Below are positions 7,301 to 54,953 of a stretch of 64,000 nucleotides of DNA, one piece after another. Within the stretch, counting starts at the first letter, position 1. Every line of letters begins with the position of its first letter. The notes under the pieces were generated by a model. The model was not told the origin of the DNA. It saw only the letters and a program-made list of their open reading frames with translations, and ran no database searches. Source of the DNA: an uncultured Bacteroides sp. (GTDB lineage Bacteria; Bacillota; Clostridia; Christensenellales; CAG-917); the NCBI GenBank assembly GCA_964644355.1, contig CAZXUW010000001.1:4461-68460 (forward strand), given 5' to 3'. The position numbers and the translations under genes are program-made.

Positions 7301-9098
7301 AGAGGAAGCATTGAGTTTCACTGCAAACGAAGTGAATTTGGTGCCTATTGTCAAGGATGATGCAAGCTTTGGTTCCTACTATGAGGAGGGAGTTGACAAA
7401 TACGTTGTCAAGTTCAAGTATGCAGACAGCGTGGACGGTTGCCATATCAATGCAAACGATAGCAACGTGTACGTCGTCAAGGTTGTCAAGGCAGTGAAGG
7501 GCACTCCGTCATTCTATGACTCTGACAATTATCAACACAACAACATCGGCGTCAATCTTGACGGCAAGAATAGCGGGGATTACTATATCAACGGTTTTGC
7601 TCAAAAAGAGGGCGTAACGGTTCCGACATTCTATACCTCATATAACAGCGCAAACCACAAGTTCACCTTCAAATATAATGACTTTGATGGTGTTGAACAC
7701 GAGATTGACAACGTTCACGTGAATGGCTTTGCTACGTCAGCGGAAAAACAAAACGCAACAGCAAGCTTTGTCGTGGACTTCTATGGCATTGGTGAGTATA
7801 GATTTGAGCTTACCTACAATGTGGAAGAAGCAAAGATTGTCAGTTTTGAGCAAGTCGGTGCAATTTCAATTCCGCTCAACAGCAACGCAAACGAGTCAAT
7901 ACGCAACTTCTATGCGGAGCTTATTGGAGAGGATAAGGAAAGAGAGCGTGTCGCATTGAGTTCGGCAAACGGATTTAGCGTTATATCAGGTTCGCTTGAC
8001 TCATCAACGCTTGGCATCCACACAATGACCGTAAAGTATTTGTCACAGAAAGTTGACAGTGCACTCACCGGCACAATCGTATACTCCGTTGTGCTTGAGG
8101 CGGATGAAAGTTTGTTCACATATGAAGTGATCGACACAACGGCTAAGACAGCAAGAATCGTATCTTGCTCGCAAGACAAAGCAAGCACAATCGTCATTCC
8201 GTCCACTTGCACAATCAACGGTGACGAATACACTGTTACGAGAATTGGCACTGCAAACTCATCAAGGGGCGTGTTTGAAGGCTTCAAAAACTTGAAAGCC
8301 GTCTACCTTGCACAAAGCATCAAGTATATCAGCAACAACACATTCAAAGATTGTACCTATCTTGCAAACGTCTACACCGCTGAGAACGTGAACGTTGCGT
8401 TCGCACCGCTTACTAGTGTAAACTGGACGGCTGTTGGTGACGAAATAATTTCAAACAATGAAGTGCATCAAAACGTAAAGATCGTCAATCTTAACGGCAT
8501 CACGCTTGAATCTGATGACACTCTTGCTATTGGTGCAAAGTATTCCCAAACGGATGCAAGTGGCAAAAAGTACGTGTTCACAGTCGTTGCGGTGGATATC
8601 GCACTTGAGCAAAAAGTTGAAGTTTTCTTGCCGGATACCATCCAACAAAATCCGTCAATCACCTATGGCAAGCTGGATATCGTGCCGAATATGTATTCAA
8701 GCGAAAGCGGATTGATGTTCACAACATCGAATCACGTCACGTCTTCTCTCGTTGAGATAGGCAACAATGCATTCAGTGGTTGCGAGAGCTTAAAGAGTAT
8801 TGATTTGAGCAAAGCAAGCAAGCTTGACAGAATAGGTGCGTGTGCATTCCAAGGTTCCGGACTTGTGCAAATAGACCTTTCAAGCAACACGGCACTCAAA
8901 GCAATCGAGAGCCAAACGTTTGAGGATTGTCGCTCACTTGAAACGGTGAAGCTTTCAAGCAGTATTGATCATATCTATGCACAAGCATTCAAGAAGTGCG
9001 CGTCACTTGCAACAATTGACGGAGGTAGTGGAAGCATCGTGGTTGACTCCACCGCATACAATCAATGTGACAAGCTTACGAAGGCACCAAAACTTTAA
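4338..9098 (+). CDS. Large surface lipoprotein with BspA-type leucine-rich repeats and a Listeria-Bacteroides (Flg_new) repeat
   Basis: The ORF opens at 4311. ATG 4338 is preceded by GGAAGGTGGAA and yields MRKKISLLLIITLGVILTFVLVAC (lipobox L-V-A-C). It has a YYFAGWY..W.F...IT.D..L...W Flg_new-type repeat. It has many BspA/TpLRR units, e.g. IADGAFADCTNLVSITLGDSIATIDNGAFANCSALQNV, IGNNAFSGCESLKSIDLS and IESQTFEDCRSLETVKLS. Confidence 0.85.
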   Translation: MRKKISLLLIITLGVILTFVLVACNTTAQSPEDLPDYVGVEDAEIGEEVNTYLTFTFTTQATSVFKSIYIDEFDISSIKYTVIYTDGAITTEGQKGDLSEDMLDDESKLLIKQAGHHMIRASLQIDENTTASGSFPLHLMQRGQTIEKVKLTFELNNSKASFGSTDASGDKAIVWVDEGASVKSWEEFVNTFPMKSLEGKALQSVRIGDKEYSATSFSEIKFNNDLTIKTNWTENYYYVNFKLNVPEDATLISGAVDPTQTFESRVAVVRGQKAISPKSEALNVYNGYYFAGWYLDANGNGKWDESDTVWSFAKPITSDNITLVGHWTSRSYSFTLYTMGGNFSANTTNHVVEGNAISSDELAKQAGFTIVEAVSQFSLKEGNLQNIVISGFAYGHNYNEYIIKVQLFQDDDKVTYLTLADIVGNLIKGSSSYTVVDNVYADYQCTTLADISKVHANLDGSDGVGYVKWKFNDPDKNATDYAKLRLERLSSYYVDVLFKGGISKKADGSLRLDKIADESVNEIIIPAEIIYQGETHPITEISANACMNLKALVKIDMSEASNLTKIGEAGFKYCPHLSEVIMPTAGNIKELGKEIFAESSYEKNYAQSGANAIIINGVLYKYVANDRAQTTSIDLSTSEFESVVRIADGAFADCTNLVSITLGDSIATIDNGAFANCSALQNVLITSSSKLSYIGESAFDGTKVISSVSNHYKSDYKAVIIGGIYYRFIDTQATDATIPDGIKYIAPHAFLDCTKVENIMILDASGILSIGKSAFSATKWVQRADNKSLVDGYIVINNILCDYPGNNGENITLPSGGKTTIVEDAFYTSAQAVRTVKFGKNIAKIEDYAFRGMPIVESFIFSEVSVGADGLVGAPQLSQNAFADATGKLVNNVKFFFSASVINYLDSLSKRSAVSNDEITLSWLRLYQLNTANFVAEKIDAVWIDQRVMPTTLLDLGNGKNALESLFDLNPSLFNKALIVMGNTGVTREEALSFTANEVNLVPIVKDDASFGSYYEEGVDKYVVKFKYADSVDGCHINANDSNVYVVKVVKAVKGTPSFYDSDNYQHNNIGVNLDGKNSGDYYINGFAQKEGVTVPTFYTSYNSANHKFTFKYNDFDGVEHEIDNVHVNGFATSAEKQNATASFVVDFYGIGEYRFELTYNVEEAKIVSFEQVGAISIPLNSNANESIRNFYAELIGEDKERERVALSSANGFSVISGSLDSSTLGIHTMTVKYLSQKVDSALTGTIVYSVVLEADESLFTYEVIDTTAKTARIVSCSQDKASTIVIPSTCTINGDEYTVTRIGTANSSRGVFEGFKNLKAVYLAQSIKYISNNTFKDCTYLANVYTAENVNVAFAPLTSVNWTAVGDEIISNNEVHQNVKIVNLNGITLESDDTLAIGAKYSQTDASGKKYVFTVVAVDIALEQKVEVFLPDTIQQNPSITYGKLDIVPNMYSSESGLMFTTSNHVTSSLVEIGNNAFSGCESLKSIDLSKASKLDRIGACAFQGSGLVQIDLSSNTALKAIESQTFEDCRSLETVKLSSSIDHIYAQAFKKCASLATIDGGSGSIVVDSTAYNQCDKLTKAPKL

Positions 9099-9176: not shown

Positions 9177-9233
9177 ATAATGAATAATTGCGGGTGGGGT
9201 ACTGCCTACACCCGAACGCACACTCGTTCATTG
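9177..9233 (+). repeat. Copy A of the stop-codon-anchored intergenic repeat family
   Basis: ATAATGAATAATTG-CGGGTGGGGTACTGCCTACACCCGAACGCACACTCGTTCATTG aligns with copies at 14817-14874 (+) and 54661-54718 (-). Internal stems are CGGGTG/CACCCG and GAACG/CGTTC. Confidence 0.6.
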
Positions 9234-9251
9234 TTTATTTGAAAACACTTC

Positions 9252-14212: not shown

Positions 14213-14816
14213 ATCAAAAGACGAGATGCTTGGCAAACTCAACACAATGTTGGACGAAAGTCTTTCTTACGCAACAAGGCTTGATGCTTATGAATATTTG
14301 CTTGAGGACTGCGAGCCGATTGTTGAAAATATGGTTGAAAAGATTTATGCCCTTGAGGGCGAAACGGGCAAAATGCTCATGGAAGTGCTTGCTCAATACA
14401 AGGGCAACAAAGCCATTTTCATGGGGCTTGTCAGCTATCTGTACAAGGGAGAGGACGTTGCTCTTTTTGCAAGGCTTATCGGCTCATACGGTGATGAGCA
14501 GGGCATAGAGGTCATCAAAACTTTCTGCGAAAGCTATGAGCCTAATTACAATGAGTATATGGAGCTTCGCAACGCCGTTGAAGAATTGGGCGGTGATTTT
14601 GATTTGAAGCAAGATTTTTCAGACGATCCGTTTTATCGTTTCCTGAAAGGTCTTGACGAGGAAGATGAGGATAGCAGAAGATCTCCGTTTGAAGATTATT
14701 TCAACTCCTCCAACGAGCACCATCACCACCATCACGATGATGACGACGATTGTGACTGTTGTGACCATGACGATTGTGACGATGATGATTGTGATTGTTG
14801 CGACGACGAAGATTAA
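14199..14816 (+). CDS. Acidic helical protein ending in a His6 + Asp/Cys-only tail (putative metal-binding)
   Basis: ATG 14199 lies 7 nt after GGAG and overlaps the upstream gene's last 14 nt. The C-terminus is ..NSSNEHHHHHHDDDDDCDCCDHDDCDDDDCDCCDDED. Confidence 0.7.
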   Translation: MDESKSKDEMLGKLNTMLDESLSYATRLDAYEYLLEDCEPIVENMVEKIYALEGETGKMLMEVLAQYKGNKAIFMGLVSYLYKGEDVALFARLIGSYGDEQGIEVIKTFCESYEPNYNEYMELRNAVEELGGDFDLKQDFSDDPFYRFLKGLDEEDEDSRRSPFEDYFNSSNEHHHHHHDDDDDCDCCDHDDCDDDDCDCCDDED

Positions 14817-14874
14817 TTAATGAATAATGAATAATTGGGGGGCTCTGCCCACACACGAACGCTCACTTATTCGA
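14817..14874 (+). repeat. Copy B of the stop-codon-anchored intergenic repeat family
   Basis: TTAATGAATAATGAATAATTGGGGGGCTCTGCCCACACACGAACGCTCACTTATTCGA starts directly after the TAA at 14814-16. It fills almost the entire 60-nt gap to the convergent gene's stop at 14877. Confidence 0.65.
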
Positions 14875-14876
14875 TT

Positions 14877-17411: not shown

Positions 17412-17600
17412 AAAAAAATCTCCGTTTTTTTGCGGAGAAGGACAAAATGCAAAAATCTTGCGACTTTTGCTTGCTACTCCTTCCCAGTCTGACTTTACAG
17501 GCGGTTGCGGAATCTCACCGCATCGGCTGTTGGGGCTGTTGGACTTGTCCGCTCTAGGCGGCATTACCACCGGTTGGGATACACCCACCCAAAGAATAGA
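17412..17600 (-). promoter_or_regulatory. FMN riboswitch (RFN element) with terminator/SD-sequestering expression platform
   Basis: The minus-strand RNA reads CUUUGGGUGGGUGUAUCCCAACCGGUGGUAAU..AGAGCGGACAAGUCC..GCGGUGAGAUUCCGCAACCGCCUGUAAAGUCAGACUGGGAAGGAG. This parallels the RFN consensus (CUUCGGGGCAGGGUGAAAUUCCCGACCGGCGGUA..GGUG.AUUC..AACCGACAGU.AAGUCUGGAUGGGAGAAGGA). Terminator UCUCCG-CAAAAAAA-CGGAGA-U7 (17412-17438) contains the GGAGA SD. Confidence 0.85.
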
Positions 17601-17617
17601 TATTGTTTGATGCGAAG

Positions 17618-31739: not shown

Positions 31740-32183
31740 ATGAAAGTTGCAGTCGGTTGCGATCATGGTGGATATGTTTTGAAAGATGCCGTTGTATCTA
31801 CACTCAAAGATTTGGGTGCAGAGGTGGTGGATTTTGGGTGCTTTGGCACGGAGTCTGTGGATTATCCCAAGTTTGGCTATGCGGTGGCAAATGCCGTTGC
31901 AAGCGGACAGTGCGACACGGGTGTTGTGATGTGTGGCACGGGTATAGGCATTTCGATTGTGGCAAACAAGGTCAAGGGCATACGTTGCGGACTTTGCACC
32001 AATGCGTTTATGGCGGAGATGACCAAACGTCACAACAATGCCAACGTTATTGCTCTTGGTGGCAGGGTTGTCACGCCAGACGAGGCAAAAGACATTGTCA
32101 AAGCTTGGTACACTGCAGATTTTGAGGGTGGTAGACACCAAAATAGACTGGATATGATAAAAGAGATAGAAAAGAACAATTGA
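31740..32183 (+). CDS. rpiB: Ribose-5-phosphate isomerase B
   Basis: 147 aa. MKVAVGCDHGGYVLK.., CGTGIGISIVANKVKGIR, and ..NNANVIALGGRV are typical RpiB/LacAB motifs. Confidence 0.92.
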   Translation: MKVAVGCDHGGYVLKDAVVSTLKDLGAEVVDFGCFGTESVDYPKFGYAVANAVASGQCDTGVVMCGTGIGISIVANKVKGIRCGLCTNAFMAEMTKRHNNANVIALGGRVVTPDEAKDIVKAWYTADFEGGRHQNRLDMIKEIEKNN

Positions 32184-32209
32184 ATGCAAAGGATTGTGCG
32201 GAGATAGGT

Positions 32210-33487
32210 ATGAAGGATTTGTTTGTGTCATATTGCAATGACGATATAATCAAGGTGAAAAGCGTTGTGAGAGCACTGAAGTTTTATGGTGCGGAATGTT
32301 GGTTTCAGGACAGCGACAGCAATCAAGAGTTTCCAGAAGCCATCATAAAAGGCTTTGAAGAATCGTCAAATTTTGTGGTGTTTCTTTCCGACAGTAGCAT
32401 CAAATCAATGTACGTGCTCAACGAGATCAAGATTGCCATAAGTAAGCACCAAAAGGAAAGCAGTTTTCACATCGTGCCGGTGATTATCGGTGATTGCGAT
32501 ATAGATTCGTATGATTTTATGAAAATCAACGTGATGATAGGAAGCTTCAATTTCTTGTTTGAAAAAAAGTTTGAGAATGAGTACGATTTGGCTTTGAAAA
32601 TTTTGGATCAAGCAAATATTGAAAACAATATCACCGATAGCGTCAACAGCATTTATGACGGTGCAACGGATATTGAAAAAGAGAGACTTGCATCCCAAAA
32701 TAGATTTTTGAACCGCATTGTCAAGGGATATTTTGACGAGATATTTGACAATTTGCACTCACCATGCGTGTTGGACGTCGGTTGCTCTGACGGCAGTAAC
32801 GTTGTCAACAGGTTGTCGGACAGAGATTATTCTCAACTTGTAGGCATTGACAACAATGCGATTGATTTGCAAAGTGCTATTGACAATTTGCAGGACGACA
32901 AACACCACTTTTTCAACGTGGATATCACCGCCGATGATCTCGAGGAGCAATTGCAAAGCATTTTGCAGGAAACAGGCATAAAGCAGTTTGATCTTATCCA
33001 GTTTTCCGCAGTGCTCATGCACACCAAAAATCCCGAGCAAATACTTGCCACTATGCGTAAATTTTTGTCCAAAGGAGGATATATTTTCATCCAAGAGGAG
33101 GATGACGGCGTAAATTTGGCATACCCCAATTCCGACTTCTTTGACAGCTGTTTTTACCTTTATATGCACTCCAAAGAGTCCGGAGACAGACATATGGCAA
33201 GAAAGATCCCTTCCTTGCTTAAAAACAGCGGATATGGTGACGTGTCCTTGAAGTCAACAGCAATTTCATCGATTGATTTTGGCGGAGAGGAGAAGGAAAC
33301 ACTGTGGGATATGTATTTCAATCCGACCTATTGGAATGCATCCGAGGCAAAATTCTTTGATAATATCAAAGCAGTGGATGCGTTGGAAAACGCCAAGAGA
33401 ATGCACGACGACAAAAAGAGTGCCTATATGCGTGACGAGATATTCGTTATGTTGGGAGTGTTTTTCTTCACGGCAAGAAATCTGTAA
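32210..33487 (+). CDS. TIR-domain / class I SAM-dependent methyltransferase fusion protein
   Basis: ATG 32210 lies 7 nt after GGAG (alternative TTG at 32180). The N-terminus looks like TIR_2: DLFVSYCNDD, GAECWFQDSD, SSNFVVFLSDSSIKSMYVLNEIKIA, HIVPVIIGD. The C-terminus carries MTase motifs: VLDVGCSDG (I), LVGIDNN, FDLIQFSAVLMH, KGGYIFIQEED. Confidence 0.75.
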   Translation: MKDLFVSYCNDDIIKVKSVVRALKFYGAECWFQDSDSNQEFPEAIIKGFEESSNFVVFLSDSSIKSMYVLNEIKIAISKHQKESSFHIVPVIIGDCDIDSYDFMKINVMIGSFNFLFEKKFENEYDLALKILDQANIENNITDSVNSIYDGATDIEKERLASQNRFLNRIVKGYFDEIFDNLHSPCVLDVGCSDGSNVVNRLSDRDYSQLVGIDNNAIDLQSAIDNLQDDKHHFFNVDITADDLEEQLQSILQETGIKQFDLIQFSAVLMHTKNPEQILATMRKFLSKGGYIFIQEEDDGVNLAYPNSDFFDSCFYLYMHSKESGDRHMARKIPSLLKNSGYGDVSLKSTAISSIDFGGEEKETLWDMYFNPTYWNASEAKFFDNIKAVDALENAKRMHDDKKSAYMRDEIFVMLGVFFFTARNL

Positions 33488-34312: not shown

Positions 34313-34990
34313 ATGTCGCAAGTTGTTTTGAAGGCATGTAATATCAAAAAGACTTTCAGCGTCGGTGAGGTGCAAACGCCGGTGCTTAAGAGCGTTGATT
34401 TCTCTCTTGACGAGGGCGAGTTTGTTGCCATTGTCGGTGAGTCGGGAAGCGGAAAATCAACCCTTCTTTATATCCTTGCCGGCATCGACAAGCCGAGCGA
34501 AGGAGAGGTTGAATTGCTTGGACAAAGCATCTCAACCATAAGCGATGACGCTCTTGCCCAAATGAGGCGTAGAGATTTTTCATTTGTGTATCAGTTTGAC
34601 AATCTCGTGCCCAATTTGACGGTGTATGAAAACGTCACACTTCCTCTTATGCTTGACAAGAAAAAAGAGAGCGAATACAAAAATCACGTTGAGGAAATTT
34701 TGCAATATCTCGGCATTTTGGACAAGTCAAAGTCTTATCCAAGACAGCTTTCGGGAGGTGAGCAACAGCGTGTTGCGATTGCAAGGGCACTTGCCACCAA
34801 TCCCAAAGTCATATTCTTGGACGAGCCTACCGGTTCGCTTGACAAGGAGCGTGGCAGACAGGTTATGGAACTGCTCAAAGACATCAATCAAAATAGGGGA
34901 GTTGCACTTGTTATGGTCACACACTCTCCGCAACACGCAAGCTATGCATCACGCATTGTCGAAATGGAGGACGGAGTCTTAAAGAATTAA
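34313..34990 (+). CDS. ABC transporter ATP-binding protein (MacB/LolD-like)
   Basis: ATG 34313 follows AAGGAGG. Walker A GESGSGKST, signature LSGGEQQRVAIARAL, Walker B IFLDEPTGSLD. Confidence 0.9.
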   Translation: MSQVVLKACNIKKTFSVGEVQTPVLKSVDFSLDEGEFVAIVGESGSGKSTLLYILAGIDKPSEGEVELLGQSISTISDDALAQMRRRDFSFVYQFDNLVPNLTVYENVTLPLMLDKKKESEYKNHVEEILQYLGILDKSKSYPRQLSGGEQQRVAIARALATNPKVIFLDEPTGSLDKERGRQVMELLKDINQNRGVALVMVTHSPQHASYASRIVEMEDGVLKN

Positions 34991-35340
34991 TAATTATTAA
35001 CGGAATGTGCATATTCAAGGCGTGGAGTCGCAAGGCAACGACCGTAGCGAACGCCAAGCTTGACGATAAGTACGAGCGACTGTGTCGTCCATTGGCCACT
35101 GCTTGGCACACAAAGCGAAGTGGCACAGCTTTCAGCTGTTTATATTGCAGAACGCACGTTCACCGCTCGCTGTTCGTTCTAGCAACGAGCTAGCAATCGC
35201 TACCACAGGTCGATTGCGTCGGTGTATCCCCATGCAAAGCACTTGCCGCGGGTTCCCTTTTAAGGGGGAACGGCAATAGGGGAAACACCTGAGGAAGGGC
35301 GATTTAGAGAATTAAGCGTGAAACATTAAAAAATATGGAT
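34991..35340 (+). other. GC-rich, hairpin-dense non-coding insert between the ATPase and permease genes (candidate structured RNA or repeat element)
   Basis: No credible ORF is present. Nested stems visible by eye:
- GGCGT 35019-23 / ACGCC 35051-55
- GACGA 35062-66 / TCGTC 35085-89
- GCCACT 35095-100 / AGTGGC 35119-24
- ACAGCT-TTC-AGCTGT 35125-39
- AGAACG 35149-54 / CGTTCT 35175-80
- CTAGC-AACGA-GCTAG 35179-93
- GCAATCG 35193-99 / CGATTGC 35211-17
- GGTGTATCCCC 35221-31 / GGGGAAACACC 35279-89 (one mismatch). Confidence 0.5.
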
Positions 35341-35366
35341 ACGCTTGGAATAGAATATTAAATATT

Positions 35367-37784
35367 ATGTTGAAGTTGGCTTTTAGAAACATCACATCGA
35401 GACCTTGGAGGTTTGTGGCTACGATACTTGCTATCGCAGTGGTTGTTGCCATGTCTTTTTCGATGTTGTCGTTTAGATCTGCCGTGTACGACTATATTTA
35501 TGCAACGGAGATAGCGTTGTCGGGCAGAAGTGACATCACAATTTCAACAAACAGTTCAAGCAACAGCATCACAGAGATTTCATCCTCACTCAAGGCACTT
35601 GACGGAGTTGATGAATTTGTGCCGGTGCTCAAACTATATGCACTTCTTGGTGACGAATACGTCTCTTTGCGAGGCTTTGATCCGAGTCAATATCAATCTT
35701 TGCAAGACATCGAGCTTGAGAGCGGATATGTGGGCACAAACGGCAGTGACGTGATAATTTCCAAGTCGGCATCAGAGCATTTCAACATTGAGTGCGGTGA
35801 CGGAATAACACTGAAAATCGGTACGAGAAGCATCACTTGCTATGTTTCGGGCATTGCAAAAAACAGCGGATATTTCCTTTCGGATGCTCCGTTTCAAGTG
35901 ATTGGCGGAATAGAACAGTTCACCAAATTGGTGCTTGGCGTCAGCGGAAAGCTGTGCAATGAGATATACTTGGTTCTTAAAGACGGTGTAAGCGTTGAGG
36001 ATACAATCGCAACGATTTCGGGCATGGAACAATATCGAAACATGTACGTGACGTATTCCAAAAACGATGCGTACGTGGATGAGAGAACGGAGAGTTTGAC
36101 GGCTCCTGTCGTGCTTGCGGGCATTGCGGTGCTCCTTTTGGGCATTGCGATAATCGTGCTTTTGTATAGCATGAGCGAGGGAGAAAAGCGTGCACTTATT
36201 TCAAGATTGTCCGTTGTCGGTGCAACCAAAAGTCAAATTTTTGGCATATTCTTGATAGAAAGCGTTTTGCAAGCCGGGATAGGTGCAATATGCGGATCAG
36301 TGTTTGCAATAGGCGTATTTGTTGGGTTGCTGAAAATCACACTCTCTACTACGGTGACTTTTTCCGTGTCGATTTGGTATTTGTTGGCAGGCGGAATTAT
36401 TGGATTTGTCAGTGCGATTGCAAGCTCTCTTTTGCCAATCAACAAGGCGTTTAGAGTGAGCATAAGAGAGAACCAGCTGGACATCCAAAAGCAAACCGGC
36501 AAGAGATGGATTTTGCCAATCTGCGTGATATTGCTCACGGCGGTAGTGCTGATTGTGGGGGCGTTTGTCGATGAAATCACGGGCATATTCAGCCTCATTG
36601 GCATGTTGCTTGCACTGCTTGGATTGGGATTGTCAAGCACTCCGGCGCTAAAGAGTGTTGCAACACAAAGTGCCAAAACAAGCGAGCCCAGCGTCAAGAG
36701 TGCAAGCTTGAGCATGGTCAGGGAAAAGCGTTTTGCTCGCTCGTCTATATTGCTCACAACGGGTATGTCGATTGCCATGATGTTGTTTATGGCGTGGTCG
36801 CTCACCACAACGATATTCACCTCTTACGTGATGGAATTTGAACATATGATACTCGTCACCAACATTCGTGCAGACGTCAATGAGGACAGATTCAAGGATG
36901 TCGAGGGCGTTGACAATGCCACAAAAATGGTTTGGACAACGGCGGAAATGCAAATTGGCGATGAACAAGTCACGATGAATATTTTTGGTTCAAAAACGAT
37001 TGCGGAGATGATTGATTTTGAGTATATAACGCCAAAAGAAAGGGTTGATGAGCTTCTTTTGAGTGATAAACCATATGTTTTTGTCGATATTTCTCAATTC
37101 AAGCTGTATGGTGTCAAGGAGGGTGATACACTCACGATGACGCTTGGCAATGAAACACAACAAGTGATTGTGGGCGGAATTTTGAAGCATGAATTGTTCA
37201 GTGGAAAATATGTGGTCGTCTCACAAGAGGTGCTCAAAAAATATTTTAATGCGGATGCGGACACGGTGCTTGCCGTTGTAAATGACAACTATCAAGTGGA
37301 TGACGTTGTCGGCATTATGCGTGAAGAATTTGCAAGCAACAACTTCTACGTCGTTTCCGCTCTCGAGTTCTTTAGATGGGATATGGAAAGCATGATGGCG
37401 GTGTTTGACCTCATTGGTGCACTGTCAATCATCGTCGGATTATTTATATGTGCGGTGAGCATAACAGGCTCGATTATCGGCAGAGGAACGGCACAAAAGG
37501 GCAGAGTTGCTTTGCTAAATGCAGGTATGTCAAAGAGACAAATGCTCAAGGCGGAAATGTTTGAGTACGGCTTGATTGCATTGATTGCATTTGTTCTTGC
37601 ACTTGCGTGTTCGCTTGTGATAACGTATGCACTTATAAACGCACTCAGGCTGTTCGGCTTATACTTTGAGTTTATCTACGAGGCGTGGGTGACGATTACG
37701 GCAGGATTGGCAATAGCAACTTGCTATACGCTCACTCCGCTTGTGTTCAATTTCAAAAAAGGATATAATCTAAAAAGGGTATAA
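35367..37784 (+). CDS. ABC transporter permease, duplicated FtsX/MacB-type
   Basis: 805 aa. MLKLAFRNITSRPWRF is a typical FtsX-family N-terminus. There are two 4-TM FtsX-like blocks separated by large extracytoplasmic regions. No SD is present. Confidence 0.85.
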   Translation: MLKLAFRNITSRPWRFVATILAIAVVVAMSFSMLSFRSAVYDYIYATEIALSGRSDITISTNSSSNSITEISSSLKALDGVDEFVPVLKLYALLGDEYVSLRGFDPSQYQSLQDIELESGYVGTNGSDVIISKSASEHFNIECGDGITLKIGTRSITCYVSGIAKNSGYFLSDAPFQVIGGIEQFTKLVLGVSGKLCNEIYLVLKDGVSVEDTIATISGMEQYRNMYVTYSKNDAYVDERTESLTAPVVLAGIAVLLLGIAIIVLLYSMSEGEKRALISRLSVVGATKSQIFGIFLIESVLQAGIGAICGSVFAIGVFVGLLKITLSTTVTFSVSIWYLLAGGIIGFVSAIASSLLPINKAFRVSIRENQLDIQKQTGKRWILPICVILLTAVVLIVGAFVDEITGIFSLIGMLLALLGLGLSSTPALKSVATQSAKTSEPSVKSASLSMVREKRFARSSILLTTGMSIAMMLFMAWSLTTTIFTSYVMEFEHMILVTNIRADVNEDRFKDVEGVDNATKMVWTTAEMQIGDEQVTMNIFGSKTIAEMIDFEYITPKERVDELLLSDKPYVFVDISQFKLYGVKEGDTLTMTLGNETQQVIVGGILKHELFSGKYVVVSQEVLKKYFNADADTVLAVVNDNYQVDDVVGIMREEFASNNFYVVSALEFFRWDMESMMAVFDLIGALSIIVGLFICAVSITGSIIGRGTAQKGRVALLNAGMSKRQMLKAEMFEYGLIALIAFVLALACSLVITYALINALRLFGLYFEFIYEAWVTITAGLAIATCYTLTPLVFNFKKGYNLKRV

Positions 37785-37786
37785 AC

Positions 37787-39562
37787 ATGAAGAAAACCGC
37801 CAGAATCCTAGCAATATTTTTGATGATAACTCTGCTGTGCGGAGTGTTTTGTGCGTGCCACAAAACAAAAGACGATCCTGCCATAAAACGCACTACGGCT
37901 ATTGACAATGTTGCAAACACGTTTTTGAGCGGTGTTGACGACACTTGGACAAAGGATATGAGCATTGACAAGATCGCAAGCTTGGACAATGCGGGCGAAT
38001 ACATTGTTGCAAATGGTTGGCTAGATCTTGTTTGCAACGTGCTAAACAAGTCCAATATGCAGACTGCAAAGCTCAATCTGCTTGCGGATACGCTTGCAAG
38101 CGAGGATGGCAAGAAACTTGTTGGCGAGTTCTCAAGCAATGCAGAGCTTCTCATTCCACTTCTCAAAGACGTAGGTTTTTCATCTGAAGATATTTCGTCT
38201 TTGGCATATCTGCTTGTTGTTGAGATAACGTCCAACGGTGAGAGCACCATCCGCTCTATGATTGACACGCTTGACGACGTAAAGGACGCTTTGACCTCAT
38301 CGCAAAGCTCGTCGATTTCAAAAATAGACAACCTCAATGAAAACAGAGCCTCTGCAGAGCGCACGTTGGAAGTCATCAAGATGAGCGGAGAGGAAAGAGA
38401 TGAAATTTTGAGTGCGTTGGCAAAGGCAGAGAGTGCCTTCAATGAGCTTGTCGAATTTGCATACGACACATCTGTCGGCTCTATCACGGACGAGCTGTAT
38501 GACAGCTTGGTGAGTGACGAGGGCATACTCGGCAGTGTCAATGAGGAAGAAATTGCAATCGTCGTGCGTGCAATGCTTGCAAACGTGCAAGACCTTGCAG
38601 ATGCTCTTTCCAAAGATGATATTGCCAATCTAAACTCTGCTTTGGACTTGTTTATAAAACATTTTGACAACAATCAAATCACATCCTCTCTTTACGCACA
38701 GATCGTGGTGTATGCAAAGTACGCCTACATGGTGGTTGACGTCATTCCGTCCATATGCGACGTGGTTCTTGCAGGCTCTGACGTGTTGGCAAACAAGGAC
38801 TTTATCGAGGATATTTTGAAGGTCGCAAAACAAGCCGAGAACGGACAAATCAATTCGCAAACCAACTCCATCAACACGCTCATTCTCATTGCAAGAATGG
38901 TTGAGGGCATCATGAGAAGCGATAGTTTTAGATACGTGGATATCATGACGTTTGTTGACCAAATCAACGTGTCCGGAAAGGATGCATATCAAAAGGCAAT
39001 GCCGCTTATTGCCCTTGATTTGATGCTCAATATCACTACGTTCGTGGAAAACCCCGATGGCGATTCGCTCAATGCGGTGCATCCTAATATCGTGGAAAAG
39101 GACGATTTGACCACTATGGTGGGTGCGTTGCTGTTGAGTGCGTGTTTGGATCAGTTCAAAGAGGCATATTACACTTATACCGCAACGGGTGATGCGGACA
39201 GCTACACCAAGATGTTCAATATGGCAACGTGGTGTGCGTTTGAATATTTTGCAGACGAGTCAAATCCATACAATCCTAGCACGCAAACAAAGTCCTGGTA
39301 CAATTGGTGCATCAACACAGCCTTGCCAAAGGCAAACAGCAAAATTTCAAGTTGTGTGAGTGTTGTGCGAGATGATTTCAAAGCGTTTGTAAACGACTAT
39401 TTTGCAGACGATTCAAGCGTGAAGTCGGCAATTCATACACTTGCAAATATGAGCATAATCGAGGAGAATTTGTCAGAGAGCGAAGTGTCCGACAACTATA
39501 TGGCACTTCTTTGCGACAGTCGATTGCTCGGTTTTGCGTACGTTTTTCAGATGATTGCTTGA
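37787..39562 (+). CDS. Helical lipoprotein of unknown function, co-operonic with the ABC transporter
   Basis: MKKTARILAIFLMITLLCGVFCAC (lipobox). It is 591 aa, D/E/S-rich, with no motif I recognise. The start lies 3 nt after the permease stop. Confidence 0.75.
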   Translation: MKKTARILAIFLMITLLCGVFCACHKTKDDPAIKRTTAIDNVANTFLSGVDDTWTKDMSIDKIASLDNAGEYIVANGWLDLVCNVLNKSNMQTAKLNLLADTLASEDGKKLVGEFSSNAELLIPLLKDVGFSSEDISSLAYLLVVEITSNGESTIRSMIDTLDDVKDALTSSQSSSISKIDNLNENRASAERTLEVIKMSGEERDEILSALAKAESAFNELVEFAYDTSVGSITDELYDSLVSDEGILGSVNEEEIAIVVRAMLANVQDLADALSKDDIANLNSALDLFIKHFDNNQITSSLYAQIVVYAKYAYMVVDVIPSICDVVLAGSDVLANKDFIEDILKVAKQAENGQINSQTNSINTLILIARMVEGIMRSDSFRYVDIMTFVDQINVSGKDAYQKAMPLIALDLMLNITTFVENPDGDSLNAVHPNIVEKDDLTTMVGALLLSACLDQFKEAYYTYTATGDADSYTKMFNMATWCAFEYFADESNPYNPSTQTKSWYNWCINTALPKANSKISSCVSVVRDDFKAFVNDYFADDSSVKSAIHTLANMSIIEENLSESEVSDNYMALLCDSRLLGFAYVFQMIA

Positions 39563-39587
39563 CTGAAAAATGTAAATAATATATATT
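39559..39587 (+). promoter_or_regulatory. Sigma-A-type promoter of the TM1266-like/ABC operon
   Basis: TTGACT (39559-64), 17 nt, TATATT (39582-87). Confidence 0.55.
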
Positions 39588-39722
39588 ATTATCATCTTAA
39601 TAAACCTATCCCAAACAATGAATTGGCGCTCAACGGAGTGGAGGCTTTTCCCAAAACGATGGCTACGTGTGTCAAACAAATCGGAGTGTAAGAGGGGGAG
39701 TCAAGGCATAAGTTTGCTTTTC

Positions 39723-39754
39723 AACCACCGCTTTTGCACGGTGGTTTTTGTTTT
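39723..39754 (+). terminator. Intrinsic terminator inside the 5' leader (attenuator)
   Basis: AACCACCG (39723-30), loop CTTTTGCA, CGGTGGTT (39739-46), then TTTGTTTT. It lies 18 nt upstream of the ATG and ~130 nt downstream of the predicted TSS. Confidence 0.7.
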
Positions 39755-39771
39755 GAATAGAAGGAGTGATT

Positions 39772-40020
39772 ATGAAAAAAATAGGTGTTGTGGGCATAGT
39801 GCTCAAACCAAACAAGGGCTTGGCTCTTGAAATGCAAAAGGTGCTTGGCGAGTTTTCCGATATCATCATCGGTAGAATGGGCATTCCAAGAGAGGATGCC
39901 AACGCTATCGCACTCATCGTTGAGGGAACGCAAGAGAGAATAAGTGCCTTGTGTGGCAAGCTCGGCAGATTTGACGGACTCAACGTAAAATCTGTAGTGT
40001 GCCAAACTATCAATGATTAA
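39772..40020 (+). CDS. TM1266-family small ACT/NikR-C-like protein ('iron-only hydrogenase system regulator' family)
   Basis: 82 aa from ATG 39772 (AAGGAG lies 5 nt upstream). KKIGVVGIVL..SDIIIGRMGIP..ANAIALIVEGTQERISALCGKLGRFDGLNVKS matches my recollection of the TIGR03959-type pattern (..IIGRMGIP.....ISI.V.....I.ALTGKLG...GV.VK). Confidence 0.65.
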   Translation: MKKIGVVGIVLKPNKGLALEMQKVLGEFSDIIIGRMGIPREDANAIALIVEGTQERISALCGKLGRFDGLNVKSVVCQTIND

Positions 40021-45102: not shown

Positions 45103-45132
45103 ACCAATCTATTGAGTAAATAACGGCGTAGA

Positions 45133-45190
45133 AGCCCCACGAGAGGCAATCCGTGCAACAAGCAGGATTGACTACTGTGGGGCTCTTTTT
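45133..45190 (+). terminator. Long-stem rho-independent terminator
   Basis: AGCCCCAC (45133-40) pairs with GTGGGGCT (45177-84), with an inner CAATCC/GGATTG helix, followed by CTTTTT. Confidence 0.7.
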
Positions 45191-45245
45191 GTGCTCTTTA
45201 GCTCAATGTGGCATCCTTTACGTGCGGATAATCCCTTAAATACAC

Positions 45246-45375
45246 CAAGCTGTGCCAGCGCCTTCGTCGATGGAGGTTCTTGTGTTCAGTTATGGAGTTT
45301 AGGGTTTAGAGTTATGATTGCCTCACGGCAAGTTTAGGATGACAATTTCTTGACACGGCAAGCTGTGCCAGCGCC
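45246..45375 (+). repeat. Two direct copies of a 17-mer (CAAGCTGTGCCAGCGCC) 113 nt apart in a ~250-nt non-coding region
   Basis: Exact copies lie at 45246-45262 and 45359-45375. Flanks are partly similar (ACAC..; ..CTTCGTCG / ..CTTTGCACGTCG). The core AAGCTGTGCCA recurs in inverse orientation at 35121-35131. Confidence 0.7.
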
Positions 45376-45489
45376 CTTTGCACGTCGTGTCGGTCGCCAT
45401 AATCACCGTGCTGGCTGACAAGATTGGATAAGGGGCTGTCTTCCACAATAATTTAATATAATCATCACAATGTAGATTTCCTTGTGCTA

Positions 45490-45518
45490 TTGACACGGGC
45501 ATATCTTTTTGGTATTAT
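45490..45518 (+). promoter_or_regulatory. Sigma-A-type promoter (extended -10) of the GH31 gene
   Basis: TTGACA (45490-95), 17 nt, TGgTATTAT (45510-18). Confidence 0.6.
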
Positions 45519-45548
45519 ATTTTTAATACATATTTATATATAGGAGAT

Positions 45549-54642: not shown

Positions 54643-54660
54643 AATCAAATAGTGGGATTT

Positions 54661-54718
54661 CGAATAAGGGTGTGTTCGGGTGTGGGTGTCCCGCCCTCAA
54701 ATATTCATTATTCATTAA
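54661..54718 (-). repeat. Copy C of the stop-codon-anchored repeat, intercistronic between rqcP and ispDF
   Basis: The minus strand reads TTAATGAATAATGAATATTTGAGGGCGGGACACCCACACCCGAACACACCCTTATTCGA. Its first 12 nt (ATT AAT GAA TAA) encode the last three residues and the stop of rqcP. Confidence 0.65.
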
Positions 54719-54953
54719 TAATTCGGTACATCGTTTCGGCACTTTGCTTGGTTTGATGTTCGTCAACGGACAGCACCTCAAAACACATTTTGCTGTTGCC
54801 GAAAGCAACGGTGACGACGTCTCCGACTTTGACGTCTTTAGATGGTTTGACGACTTTGCCGTTGATCTCTATACGACCGCCGTCGCAAGCCTCTTGAGCA
54901 ATGGTGCGACGTTTGATGACTCTGGATACTTTCAAAAATTTGTCTATTCTCAT
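54708..54953 (-). CDS. rqcP: Small S4-domain RNA-binding protein (YabO/RqcP, Hsp15-like)
   Basis: 81 aa. MRIDKFLKVSRVIKRRTIAQEACDGGRIEINGKVVKPSKDVKVGDVVTV is the S4 fold and closely parallels my recollection of B. subtilis YabO. Confidence 0.7.
   Translation of the reverse strand: MRIDKFLKVSRVIKRRTIAQEACDGGRIEINGKVVKPSKDVKVGDVVTVAFGNSKMCFEVLSVDEHQTKQSAETMYRIINE

Follow-up and report, generated by a model that had tools for sequence, protein, structure and literature searches.

Repetitive extragenic palindromic (REP) units are palindromes of about 35–40 nucleotides (nt) that are mobilised by REP-associated tyrosine transposases (RAYTs). In malEFG, an operon for an ABC transporter, a REP pair between malE and malF stabilises the upstream message and sets subunit ratios. 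Here we consider another ABC transporter operon, of the MacB type, in a 64,000-nt stretch of DNA from an uncultured member of the Clostridia (contig CAZXUW010000001.1; the whole stretch is hereafter called the window), in which the ATPase and permease genes are held apart by a spacer. We assign a probability of about 0.8 to the reading that positions 34985–35310 of the window belong to a family of interspersed repeats, non-coding, modular and rich in hairpins, one copy of which has inserted into the operon, and that this family is similar in kind to BOX repeats, bacterial interspersed mosaic elements (BIMEs) and miniature inverted-repeat transposable elements (MITEs). Uncultured human-gut Clostridia of one lineage carry the repeat in abundance and, judged by Rfam and by a literature search that returned no description of it, the family appears to be undescribed.

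Window positions 34995–35305 are homologous, by both BLAST and nhmmer, to a dispersed repeat family. The depth of the BLAST matches differs along the element, with 20–38 compared loci (numbered here from L001) over 34995–35128 and 7–8 over 35222–35302. An nhmmer profile built from 22 other copies, with the window left out, matches 35025–35128 (E = 1.3e-21) and also finds a dozen or more additional, more diverged copies in the metagenome stretches. Full-length homologues occur at two unrelated loci, L028:6362-6640(-) with 72% identity and L047:3310-3529(-) with 68%, and these alone are homologous to the central segment 35130–35220; the 3' domain (35222–35302) is present in about ten further copies. 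A search with a 30-nt core pattern taken from the hairpin at 35095–35124 (GCCACTGCNTGGCNCACAAAGCGNAGTGGC) recovered 36 stretches, on both strands, in contigs of human-gut metagenomes. Some contigs hold several copies: five on UOJS01000012.1 (218 kb), three on ERZ808262 NODE_17 and two on each of three others. One assembly, UOJS01, contains at least 11 core copies, with five contigs at 46–53x coverage, so that the relatives appear, from these contigs, to carry many copies per genome in unrelated contexts. Homology around the core extends from about -120 to +210 (roughly 330 nt), and the flanks beyond share nothing. The host lineage of the copies is that of uncultured human-gut Clostridia, public records naming Christensenella sp. 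UBA6880/UBA7571 and uncultured Clostridiales UMGS bins. Because the core pattern has no match in viral contigs and the element none in plasmid and phage collections, it is not obviously phage- or plasmid-borne.

The second line of evidence comes from orthologous operons. A search with the permease, taking one genome per species, gave 15 loci from uncultured gut Clostridia, and the ATPase is 81–84% identical in the 13 of these that contain it. In five of the 13 (L001, L002, L010, L013, L014) the two genes are only 1 nt apart; in the other eight the spacers measure 64, 64, 70, 103, 104, 218, 218 and 455 nt, and the longer ones are mosaics of short modules that differ in content, not versions of one conserved sequence. 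In the window, a gap of 376 nt (34991–35366) separates the two genes, the ATPase open reading frame (ORF) stopping at 34990 and the permease starting with an ATG at 35367. The gap begins with an A/T block, AATTAATAATTATTAA, that contains the ATPase stop codon: the gene's last two codons and stop, AAG AAT TAA, fall within or at the insert's A/T head, and the protein, which is identical on Logan contigs, ends ...MEDGVLKN* where the compact orthologous loci read ...MEDGLLA* or V*. Because the compact loci have the genes 1 nt apart and the stop lies inside the A/T block, the spacer is an insertion into an operon whose genes normally abut. The point of insertion is the ATPase stop codon or a site immediately ahead of it, and the A/T head of the element now provides that stop.

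The spacers compared here show that the ATPase/permease junction has been a repeated target of insertions. At L012, portions of the spacer are found again 5 kb downstream with 93.6% identity. A different insert of about 148 nt, ACCGCACTTGTCCTCGC..., occupies the same spacer in three loci (L003 3788-3929, L008 3798-3929 and L012 3684-3825). In L003 and L008 it is bounded by ATTGC(T/G)T, and L015 has the empty site; this insert represents a second repeat family, with a possible 7-nt target duplication. Polymorphism is also seen for the present family itself, away from this operon: window 35025–35125 is about 80% identical to an insert that in L003 and L008 separates a TM1266-family gene from the gene for an ABC substrate-binding protein, a gap of only about 26 nt in other relatives.

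These results bear on the original prediction, which was made from the letters of the window and offered several readings of the gap. Its MacB-type flanks agree with Pfam and NCBIfam, and its impression that the gap is richer in GC than other intergenic regions is correct: GC content is 0.479 overall and 0.543 over 35000–35299, against 0.25–0.435 in the other gaps of the window, and the gap ranks first among the 20 that are at least 80 nt long. The stop-rich A/T block at the ATPase stop was also rightly noted. Among the readings offered, that of a miniature non-autonomous repeat element gains support from the multi-copy dispersed family, the unique flanks and the orthologous operons that lack the element. 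The proposed comparison with such operons revealed insertion polymorphism, with unrelated or mosaic inserts wherever the spacer is longer than 1 nt.

Table 1. Features of the ATPase/permease junction (window coordinates).
Feature	Position	Strand	Evidence or remarks
ABC ATPase gene, LolD/MacB type	34313..34990	+	likely start ATG 34313; Pfam ABC_tran 3.6e-39, NCBIfam LolD-like
Repeat element, long variant of dispersed modular non-coding repeat	34985..35310	+	BLAST, nhmmer, full-length homologues
A/T head block AATTAATAATTATTAA	34985..35000	+	stops in several frames; short form of AATTAATAATTAATAATGAATAATTAATAATTG block
Conserved 5' body	34995..35128	+	hairpins GAGTCGCAAGGCAACGAC, CTTG..CAAG, GCCACTGC..AGTGGC (35095-35124, search core)
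Hairpin CAGCT-TTC-AGCTG then TTTATATT	35125..35139	+	weak-terminator-like; 3 homologues 100% paired
Central segment, long variant only, holding hairpin 35193-35217 (GCAATCG..CGATTGC)	35130..35220	+	
Conserved 3' domain	35221..35302	+	closing helix 35221-31/35279-89; 12 copies aligned
GAGAATTAA, near-repeat of AAGAATTAA (34982-34990)	35307..35315	+	direct repeat, 11/12 bases, spacing 325
A/T-rich residual spacer outside repeat	35316..35366	+	sequence reading; no family homology beyond ~35310
MacB_PCD + FtsX permease gene, 805 aa	35367..37784	+	Pfam; 15 orthologues, 52-55% identity

The element is built of modules (Table 1). Many copies are headed by a AATTAATAATTAATAATGAATAATTAATAATTG A/T block, usually followed by a GC hairpin, and 27 such head blocks occur in the 549 kb of compared sequence, four of them in the window (at 9179, 14819, 34985 and 54716(-)). 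In three of these four (14819, 34985 and 54716(-)) the gene upstream, which has the same orientation, ends within the block, its stop codon being part of it. The 3' domain comprises hairpins at 35233–41 and 35243–76 (inner stem 35252–71) and a purine-rich tail, TGAGGAAGGG, and family homology stops at about 35305. Typical copies are about 320 nt long, and nested inserts extend this to about 480 nt. One such insert, of 158 nt with 10-bp inverted ends (CACGCACAAG / CTTGTGCGTG), lies inside the loop of the CTTG..CAAG hairpin in the type-B copies (L032, L033, L042, L048, L049 and L051), which are 95–100% identical to one another; L030 and L049 have an extra insert of about 50 nt ahead of TTCCCC. 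The residual spacer that follows the element contains a small hairpin before the permease ATG (AAGCGT 35314–19 / ACGCTT 35341–46), and a reading of its sequence found no clear Shine-Dalgarno motif.

Elsewhere in the window, further short modules of the same repeat system are found at 9179-9250 (+), 14811-14875 (+) and 54655-54724 (-), composed of an A/T block (AATGAATAATGAATAATT...), a GC hairpin (GGGGGCTCTGCCCAC / GGGCGGGACACCCAC) and CGAAC..TTATTCGA. Another recurrent intergenic module, found in both orientations, consists of GCGAATAACTGCGTCAG..GTACG hairpin..CTTCCTTGTTCTTCATCT; it occurs at L003 8430-8540 and at many metagenome loci (for example, in the flanks of L023, L031 and L043).

The hairpins have been preserved as the copies diverged. 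The plus strand of the gap folds with a minimum free energy (MFE) of -127.8 kcal/mol, whereas dinucleotide shuffles average -106.1 +/- 5.7 (z = -3.79), and the minus strand behaves similarly (z = -3.62), so the gap passes the shuffled-sequence control that had been suggested for it. For a 22-copy alignment RNAalifold predicts 61 pairs, and compensatory double changes are seen at 7 of these. Across the homologous copies of the window element, six local hairpins are preserved, four of these with compensatory changes. In the 3' domain, for which 12 copies could be aligned, 90% of cells are paired as against 44–54% for slid partners, with 4 compensatory pairs, and none of 500 shuffles does as well. 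The 11-bp helix that had been proposed to close this domain around two hairpins likewise shows compensatory changes in copies. In the three long-variant copies the hairpins at 35125–39, 35193–217, 35233–41, 35243–76 and 35252–71 are paired at 87–100%; that at 35125–39 has undergone an A-U to G-C compensatory change, and that at 35193–217 is 100% paired with two compensatory double changes. The preservation of 35125–39 and 35193–217 agrees with the local hairpins described at the outset. Helices that join distant parts of the minimum-energy fold are not preserved in these three copies. The local hairpins, paired and compensated across copies, are real and under constraint, and this constraint may act at the level of RNA or of single-stranded DNA.

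One proposed connection within the window has not survived comparison. The gap shares an 11-mer, AAGCTGTGCCA, with a direct repeat 10 kb downstream, previously placed at 45246/45359, and this 11-mer occurs three times (in the gap and at 45247 and 45360) against 0.06 expected. However, 45103–45548 is otherwise without homology to the element or to any compared locus, and the closest homologues read TGGCACGGCTT in place of the 11-mer, the differing base being one side of a compensatory pair. Because the two regions have nothing else in common and the closest homologues lack the 11-mer, we treat it as coincidence. The supposed resemblance of GAACGCA/CGTTCA to one copy of that repeat is a trivial short match. 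Region 45103–45548 is itself the second GC-richest gap (0.435); it follows a terminator-like hairpin and contains a 17-nt direct repeat, AAGCTGTGCCAGCGCC, at 45247 and 45360.

Calling genes around the copies by codon-usage score revealed where the repeat settles. Given as the orientations of the upstream and downstream genes relative to the element, the counts are 16 for (+,+), 9 for (+,-), 6 for (-,-) and 1 for (-,+), so the gene pairs around copies are co-directional (16 with the element in sense, 6 in antisense) or convergent, and in one case only divergent. The family, in other words, sits past gene 3' ends and within operons, and almost never in divergent promoter regions. A preference for the sense orientation was considered and is not firm: the upstream gene is co-oriented in 29 of 37 raw cases, but the bias among co-directional pairs falls to about 12 versus 6 once the same site in several samples is counted once, and the A/T head modules are split 15 versus 11. 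Taken with the structural data, the gap is a multi-copy, non-coding, hairpin-conserving modular repeat that is tied to no gene class and to no Rfam family.

Several observations weigh against the reading as an inserted repeat. No transposase-like or other protein family recurs among the 255 predicted proteins that flank the copies. Terminal inverted repeats were not found in the window copy or in the copies at L036 and L055, the closest approach to inverted ends being an 11-nt, 82% A/T match at 34982–92/35356–66. There is no convincing target-site duplication, only AGAATTAA flanking the window copy and none that is copy-specific in others. The 64-kb window holds a single body copy besides the four A/T head modules, and a repeat search with a seed of 11 located no second body copy within it. 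Finally, the plus strand of the copies folds slightly better than the minus strand (mean MFE -94 versus -83.5 kcal/mol) and the unpaired segments are very highly conserved, which together leave room for a function at the RNA level.

Other traces of a transposition event were sought. In the sampled flanks there was no RAYT-like gene, and no tnpA-, tnpB- or iscB-like gene recurs next to the copies. Comparison of the filled and empty TM1266/substrate-binding-protein junctions shows no clean duplication, and the similarity between 5' TTCGAAGACGGAAC and 3' TTGTAGAGGAAGAAC, examined as a target duplication, is family-wide and not specific to any copy. The pair formed by GAGAATTAA and AAGAATTAA could stem from a target-site duplication or from an A/T block that was split. 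We therefore infer that the element is, or once was, mobile; it would be non-autonomous, spread in trans by an enzyme or via recombination between modules.

A bolder version of the repeat interpretation is that these elements form an undescribed superfamily of modular, structure-conserving intergenic sequences, of one uncultured human-gut Clostridia lineage, that either spread unlike classical MITEs (e.g., by hairpin- or RNA-directed insertion) or whose plus-strand RNA is active. Its members may be marked by an A/T head with stops in all frames, a multi-hairpin body and modules nested in hairpin loops, without inverted ends or a neighbouring transposase. We think this unlikely, though worth stating for what would follow from it. 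Should mobilisation prove unusual in this way, without inverted ends and with modules nesting in hairpin loops, interest in the family would be broader; and if the plus-strand RNA were active, through processing, self-cleavage or message stabilisation, it would set subunit ratios in the operons that it has colonised.

Among the alternatives to an inserted repeat, the one that fares best is a multi-copy functional RNA family, such as a self-cleaving or processing RNA, a small RNA (sRNA) or a guide-type RNA that is a relic or a partner of an RNA-guided mobile element, in which the spread would reflect the function of the RNA and not the selfish mobility of DNA. A length of about 300 nt, the many near-invariant unpaired positions alongside compensated helices, the better folding of the plus strand and the invariant G-U pairs on that strand are all features that such a family would have. 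Recent spread alone, however, can give high identity between copies. Neither the gap nor the consensus-like copy at L036 belongs to any Rfam family, whether at the gathering threshold or at E <= 10, and these searches included the HEARO and IS605-orfB models; a scan for tRNA and tmRNA also returned nothing. No promoter-like site was detected in 34991–35366 by a consensus scan, itself weak evidence, and the only terminator-like site in the gap is the weak hairpin at 35125–39 followed by TTTATATT, so that the same scan does not reveal the own promoter and terminator of an independent sRNA gene. The occurrence of copies in both orientations relative to their neighbours, even at the de-duplicated ratio, and the absence of a recurrent neighbouring protein gene also count against an RNA function, which we judge improbable as the explanation of the family.

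A dedicated cis-regulatory RNA for the permease, either a riboswitch or an attenuator, is far less probable still and is already largely refuted. It would account for the stable structure and for the position directly upstream of the permease gene, and cmscan does report a single sub-threshold match, to the c-di-GMP-I-UAU riboswitch variant at 34999–35093 (20.4 bits against a gathering score of 65.9, E = 0.088). This match is some 45 bits under the gathering score, is not seen in the consensus-like copy, and is all that came of the Rfam check proposed in the original prediction. Moreover, the spacer is lacking in five orthologous operons and consists of unrelated inserts in others, and copies of the same element adjoin unrelated genes, follow gene 3' ends and sit within convergent gene pairs, where a riboswitch would hold a conserved position before a coherent gene set. 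The earlier suggestion of a cis-regulatory RNA or sRNA specific to this locus is thus unsupported: no Rfam family, no promoter-like site and no gene class is associated with it. An inserted repeat, by comparison, explains the odd-looking operon without a new riboswitch.

The possibility that the spacer is the decayed remnant of a protein-coding gene once located between the ATPase and permease genes can be dismissed as barely tenable. The gap does contain ORFs of 62, 65 and 69 aa, and many family copies share a 35-codon ATG-initiated frame, MSAELDEQYKRLRRPLATAW..., but none of four gap ORFs matches Pfam at E <= 1, and the ATG of the shared frame is missing from the window and some other copies. 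That frame is further disrupted by stops (GAATAG) in L008 and L043 and by 1-nt indels in L024, L028, L029 and L030, and the sites at which it varies are those of hairpin loops and second codon positions. Every frame is interrupted in family copies, which with the want of a Pfam match leads us to reject a coding remnant, and the sequence, of about 330 nt, occurs in many copies that are without exception intergenic. The original description of a 376-nt gap with no credible ORF is upheld by the same evidence together with the ORF ends.

Repeats of this kind leave marks on assemblies, and the present element does so at several loci. Three Logan assemblies with an identical ATPase all stop at window position 35133, inside the hairpin at 35125–39, and a Logan assembly with an identical permease starts at 35270. 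Because these assemblies derive from k-mer graphs, such ends imply that the 30-mers 35104–33 and 35270–99 have more than one continuation in those samples. From these breaks and the four head modules, we infer that the window's own lineage contains further copies or variants of the repeat. In L003 a 9-N scaffold join (9007-9015) comes right after GTGGCA, at a locus where metagenome L056 is continuous. Four independent assemblies in all have contig ends or scaffold joins within the element, and breaks of this kind bear on strain typing and on how reliable metagenome-assembled genomes are. Although none of the compared Logan contigs spans 35134–35269, a chimeric join of repeat copies has next to no likelihood as the origin of the window arrangement, since the same order of segments is continuous across both break points in two independent homologues, L028:6362-6640 and L047:3310-3529. 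A different kind of assembly fault was noticed in L002, where the contig end (8385-8423) of a public metagenome-assembled genome is untrimmed Nextera adapter (CTGTCTCTTATACACATCT...).

If the element is an inserted repeat, its presence would have consequences for the operon. Because the gap has no promoter-like site, the element would be read through within the operon mRNA, having no promoter of its own. Its insertion would leave the ATPase and permease genes without stop/start coupling, and its conserved hairpins, one of which has UUUAUAUU after it, could make the upstream ATPase message more stable or bring about partial attenuation of the permease, as the REP pair does at malE-malF. Any such effect on expression would probably be a side effect of the inserted repeat and not the work of a dedicated regulator; insulation of the operon at the RNA level, which had been raised as one reading of the gap, may be a secondary effect of this sort and not the defining property of the sequence. 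In that coupling is removed and conserved hairpins are added between two genes, the operon offers a natural test case for repeats that retune subunit stoichiometry.

Three other features of the window deserve mention. An FMN riboswitch at 17472-17601 (-) scores barely over the Rfam gathering score (66.8 versus 66.2 bits). At 32180-33487 (+), one ORF joins an N-terminal TIR_2 domain to a class I S-adenosylmethionine (SAM) methyltransferase domain, an unusual architecture that is possibly defence-related. A conserved leader at 39559-39760 (+) precedes a gene for a TM1266-family regulator (39772-40020) and an SsuA-like ABC importer. A promoter-like TTGACT is present, together with two tandem AAACGATG..variable stem..CGGAGTG(T/G)A(A/G)G blocks, after which comes a terminator hairpin, CAACCACCGC..GCGGTGGTTTTTG. 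The whole is kept in 12 orthologous loci, with covariation in the stems and the terminator, and has no Rfam match. This leader looks like a candidate for an undescribed riboswitch or attenuator.

How, then, does the repeat compare with described systems? Its likeness to the c-di-GMP-I (GEMM-I) variant UAU (RF03168) is weak and local, limited to the match at 34999–35093; the score is sub-threshold, the match is not kept in copies, and the genomic distribution of the family is incompatible with a riboswitch. The palindrome-associated elements of IS200/IS605 and the relics of omega RNA or reRNA come closer, in that they too are multi-copy, structured, non-coding sequences of a few hundred nt, with hairpin-rich ends that lack inverted terminal repeats and obligatory target duplications. 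The present family differs from them in having no HEARO or IS605-orfB match in Rfam at E <= 10 and no tnpA-, tnpB- or iscB-like neighbour.

With MITEs, such as the Correia/NEMIS elements of Neisseria, the pneumococcal RUP, ERIC and bcr1 of Bacillus cereus, the family has in common that it is small, non-coding, multi-copy and non-autonomous, that its insertions are polymorphic among relatives, that co-transcription possibly alters its neighbours, and that it breaks short-read assemblies. It departs from them in its ends, in which terminal inverted repeats were sought and not found, and in the lack of a parent insertion sequence among the 255 flanking proteins. Because it fails to show the inverted ends of a MITE, we liken the element to BOX, REP/BIME or MITEs without filing it under any of them. 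Like the REP/BIME sequences of enterobacteria, it forms hairpin repeats past gene 3' ends and within operons that are rare between divergent genes; unlike them, it has a multi-hairpin body of about 320 nt in place of palindromic units of 20–40 nt, and its sampled flanks contained nothing resembling a RAYT gene.

The comparison with BOX of Streptococcus pneumoniae is one of organisation, and BOX is not known to be related in sequence to the present family. The family is longer than BOX (about 320 nt, or as much as about 480 nt with nested inserts), has a stop-rich A/T head and comes from uncultured gut Clostridia. In organisation, however, the two are alike. As with the boxA-boxB-boxC arrangement, the present repeat is non-coding, multi-copy and intergenic, combines its modules in varying ways, is predicted to form stable hairpins, and often resides in or beside operons, with which it would be co-transcribed, without a transposase of its own.

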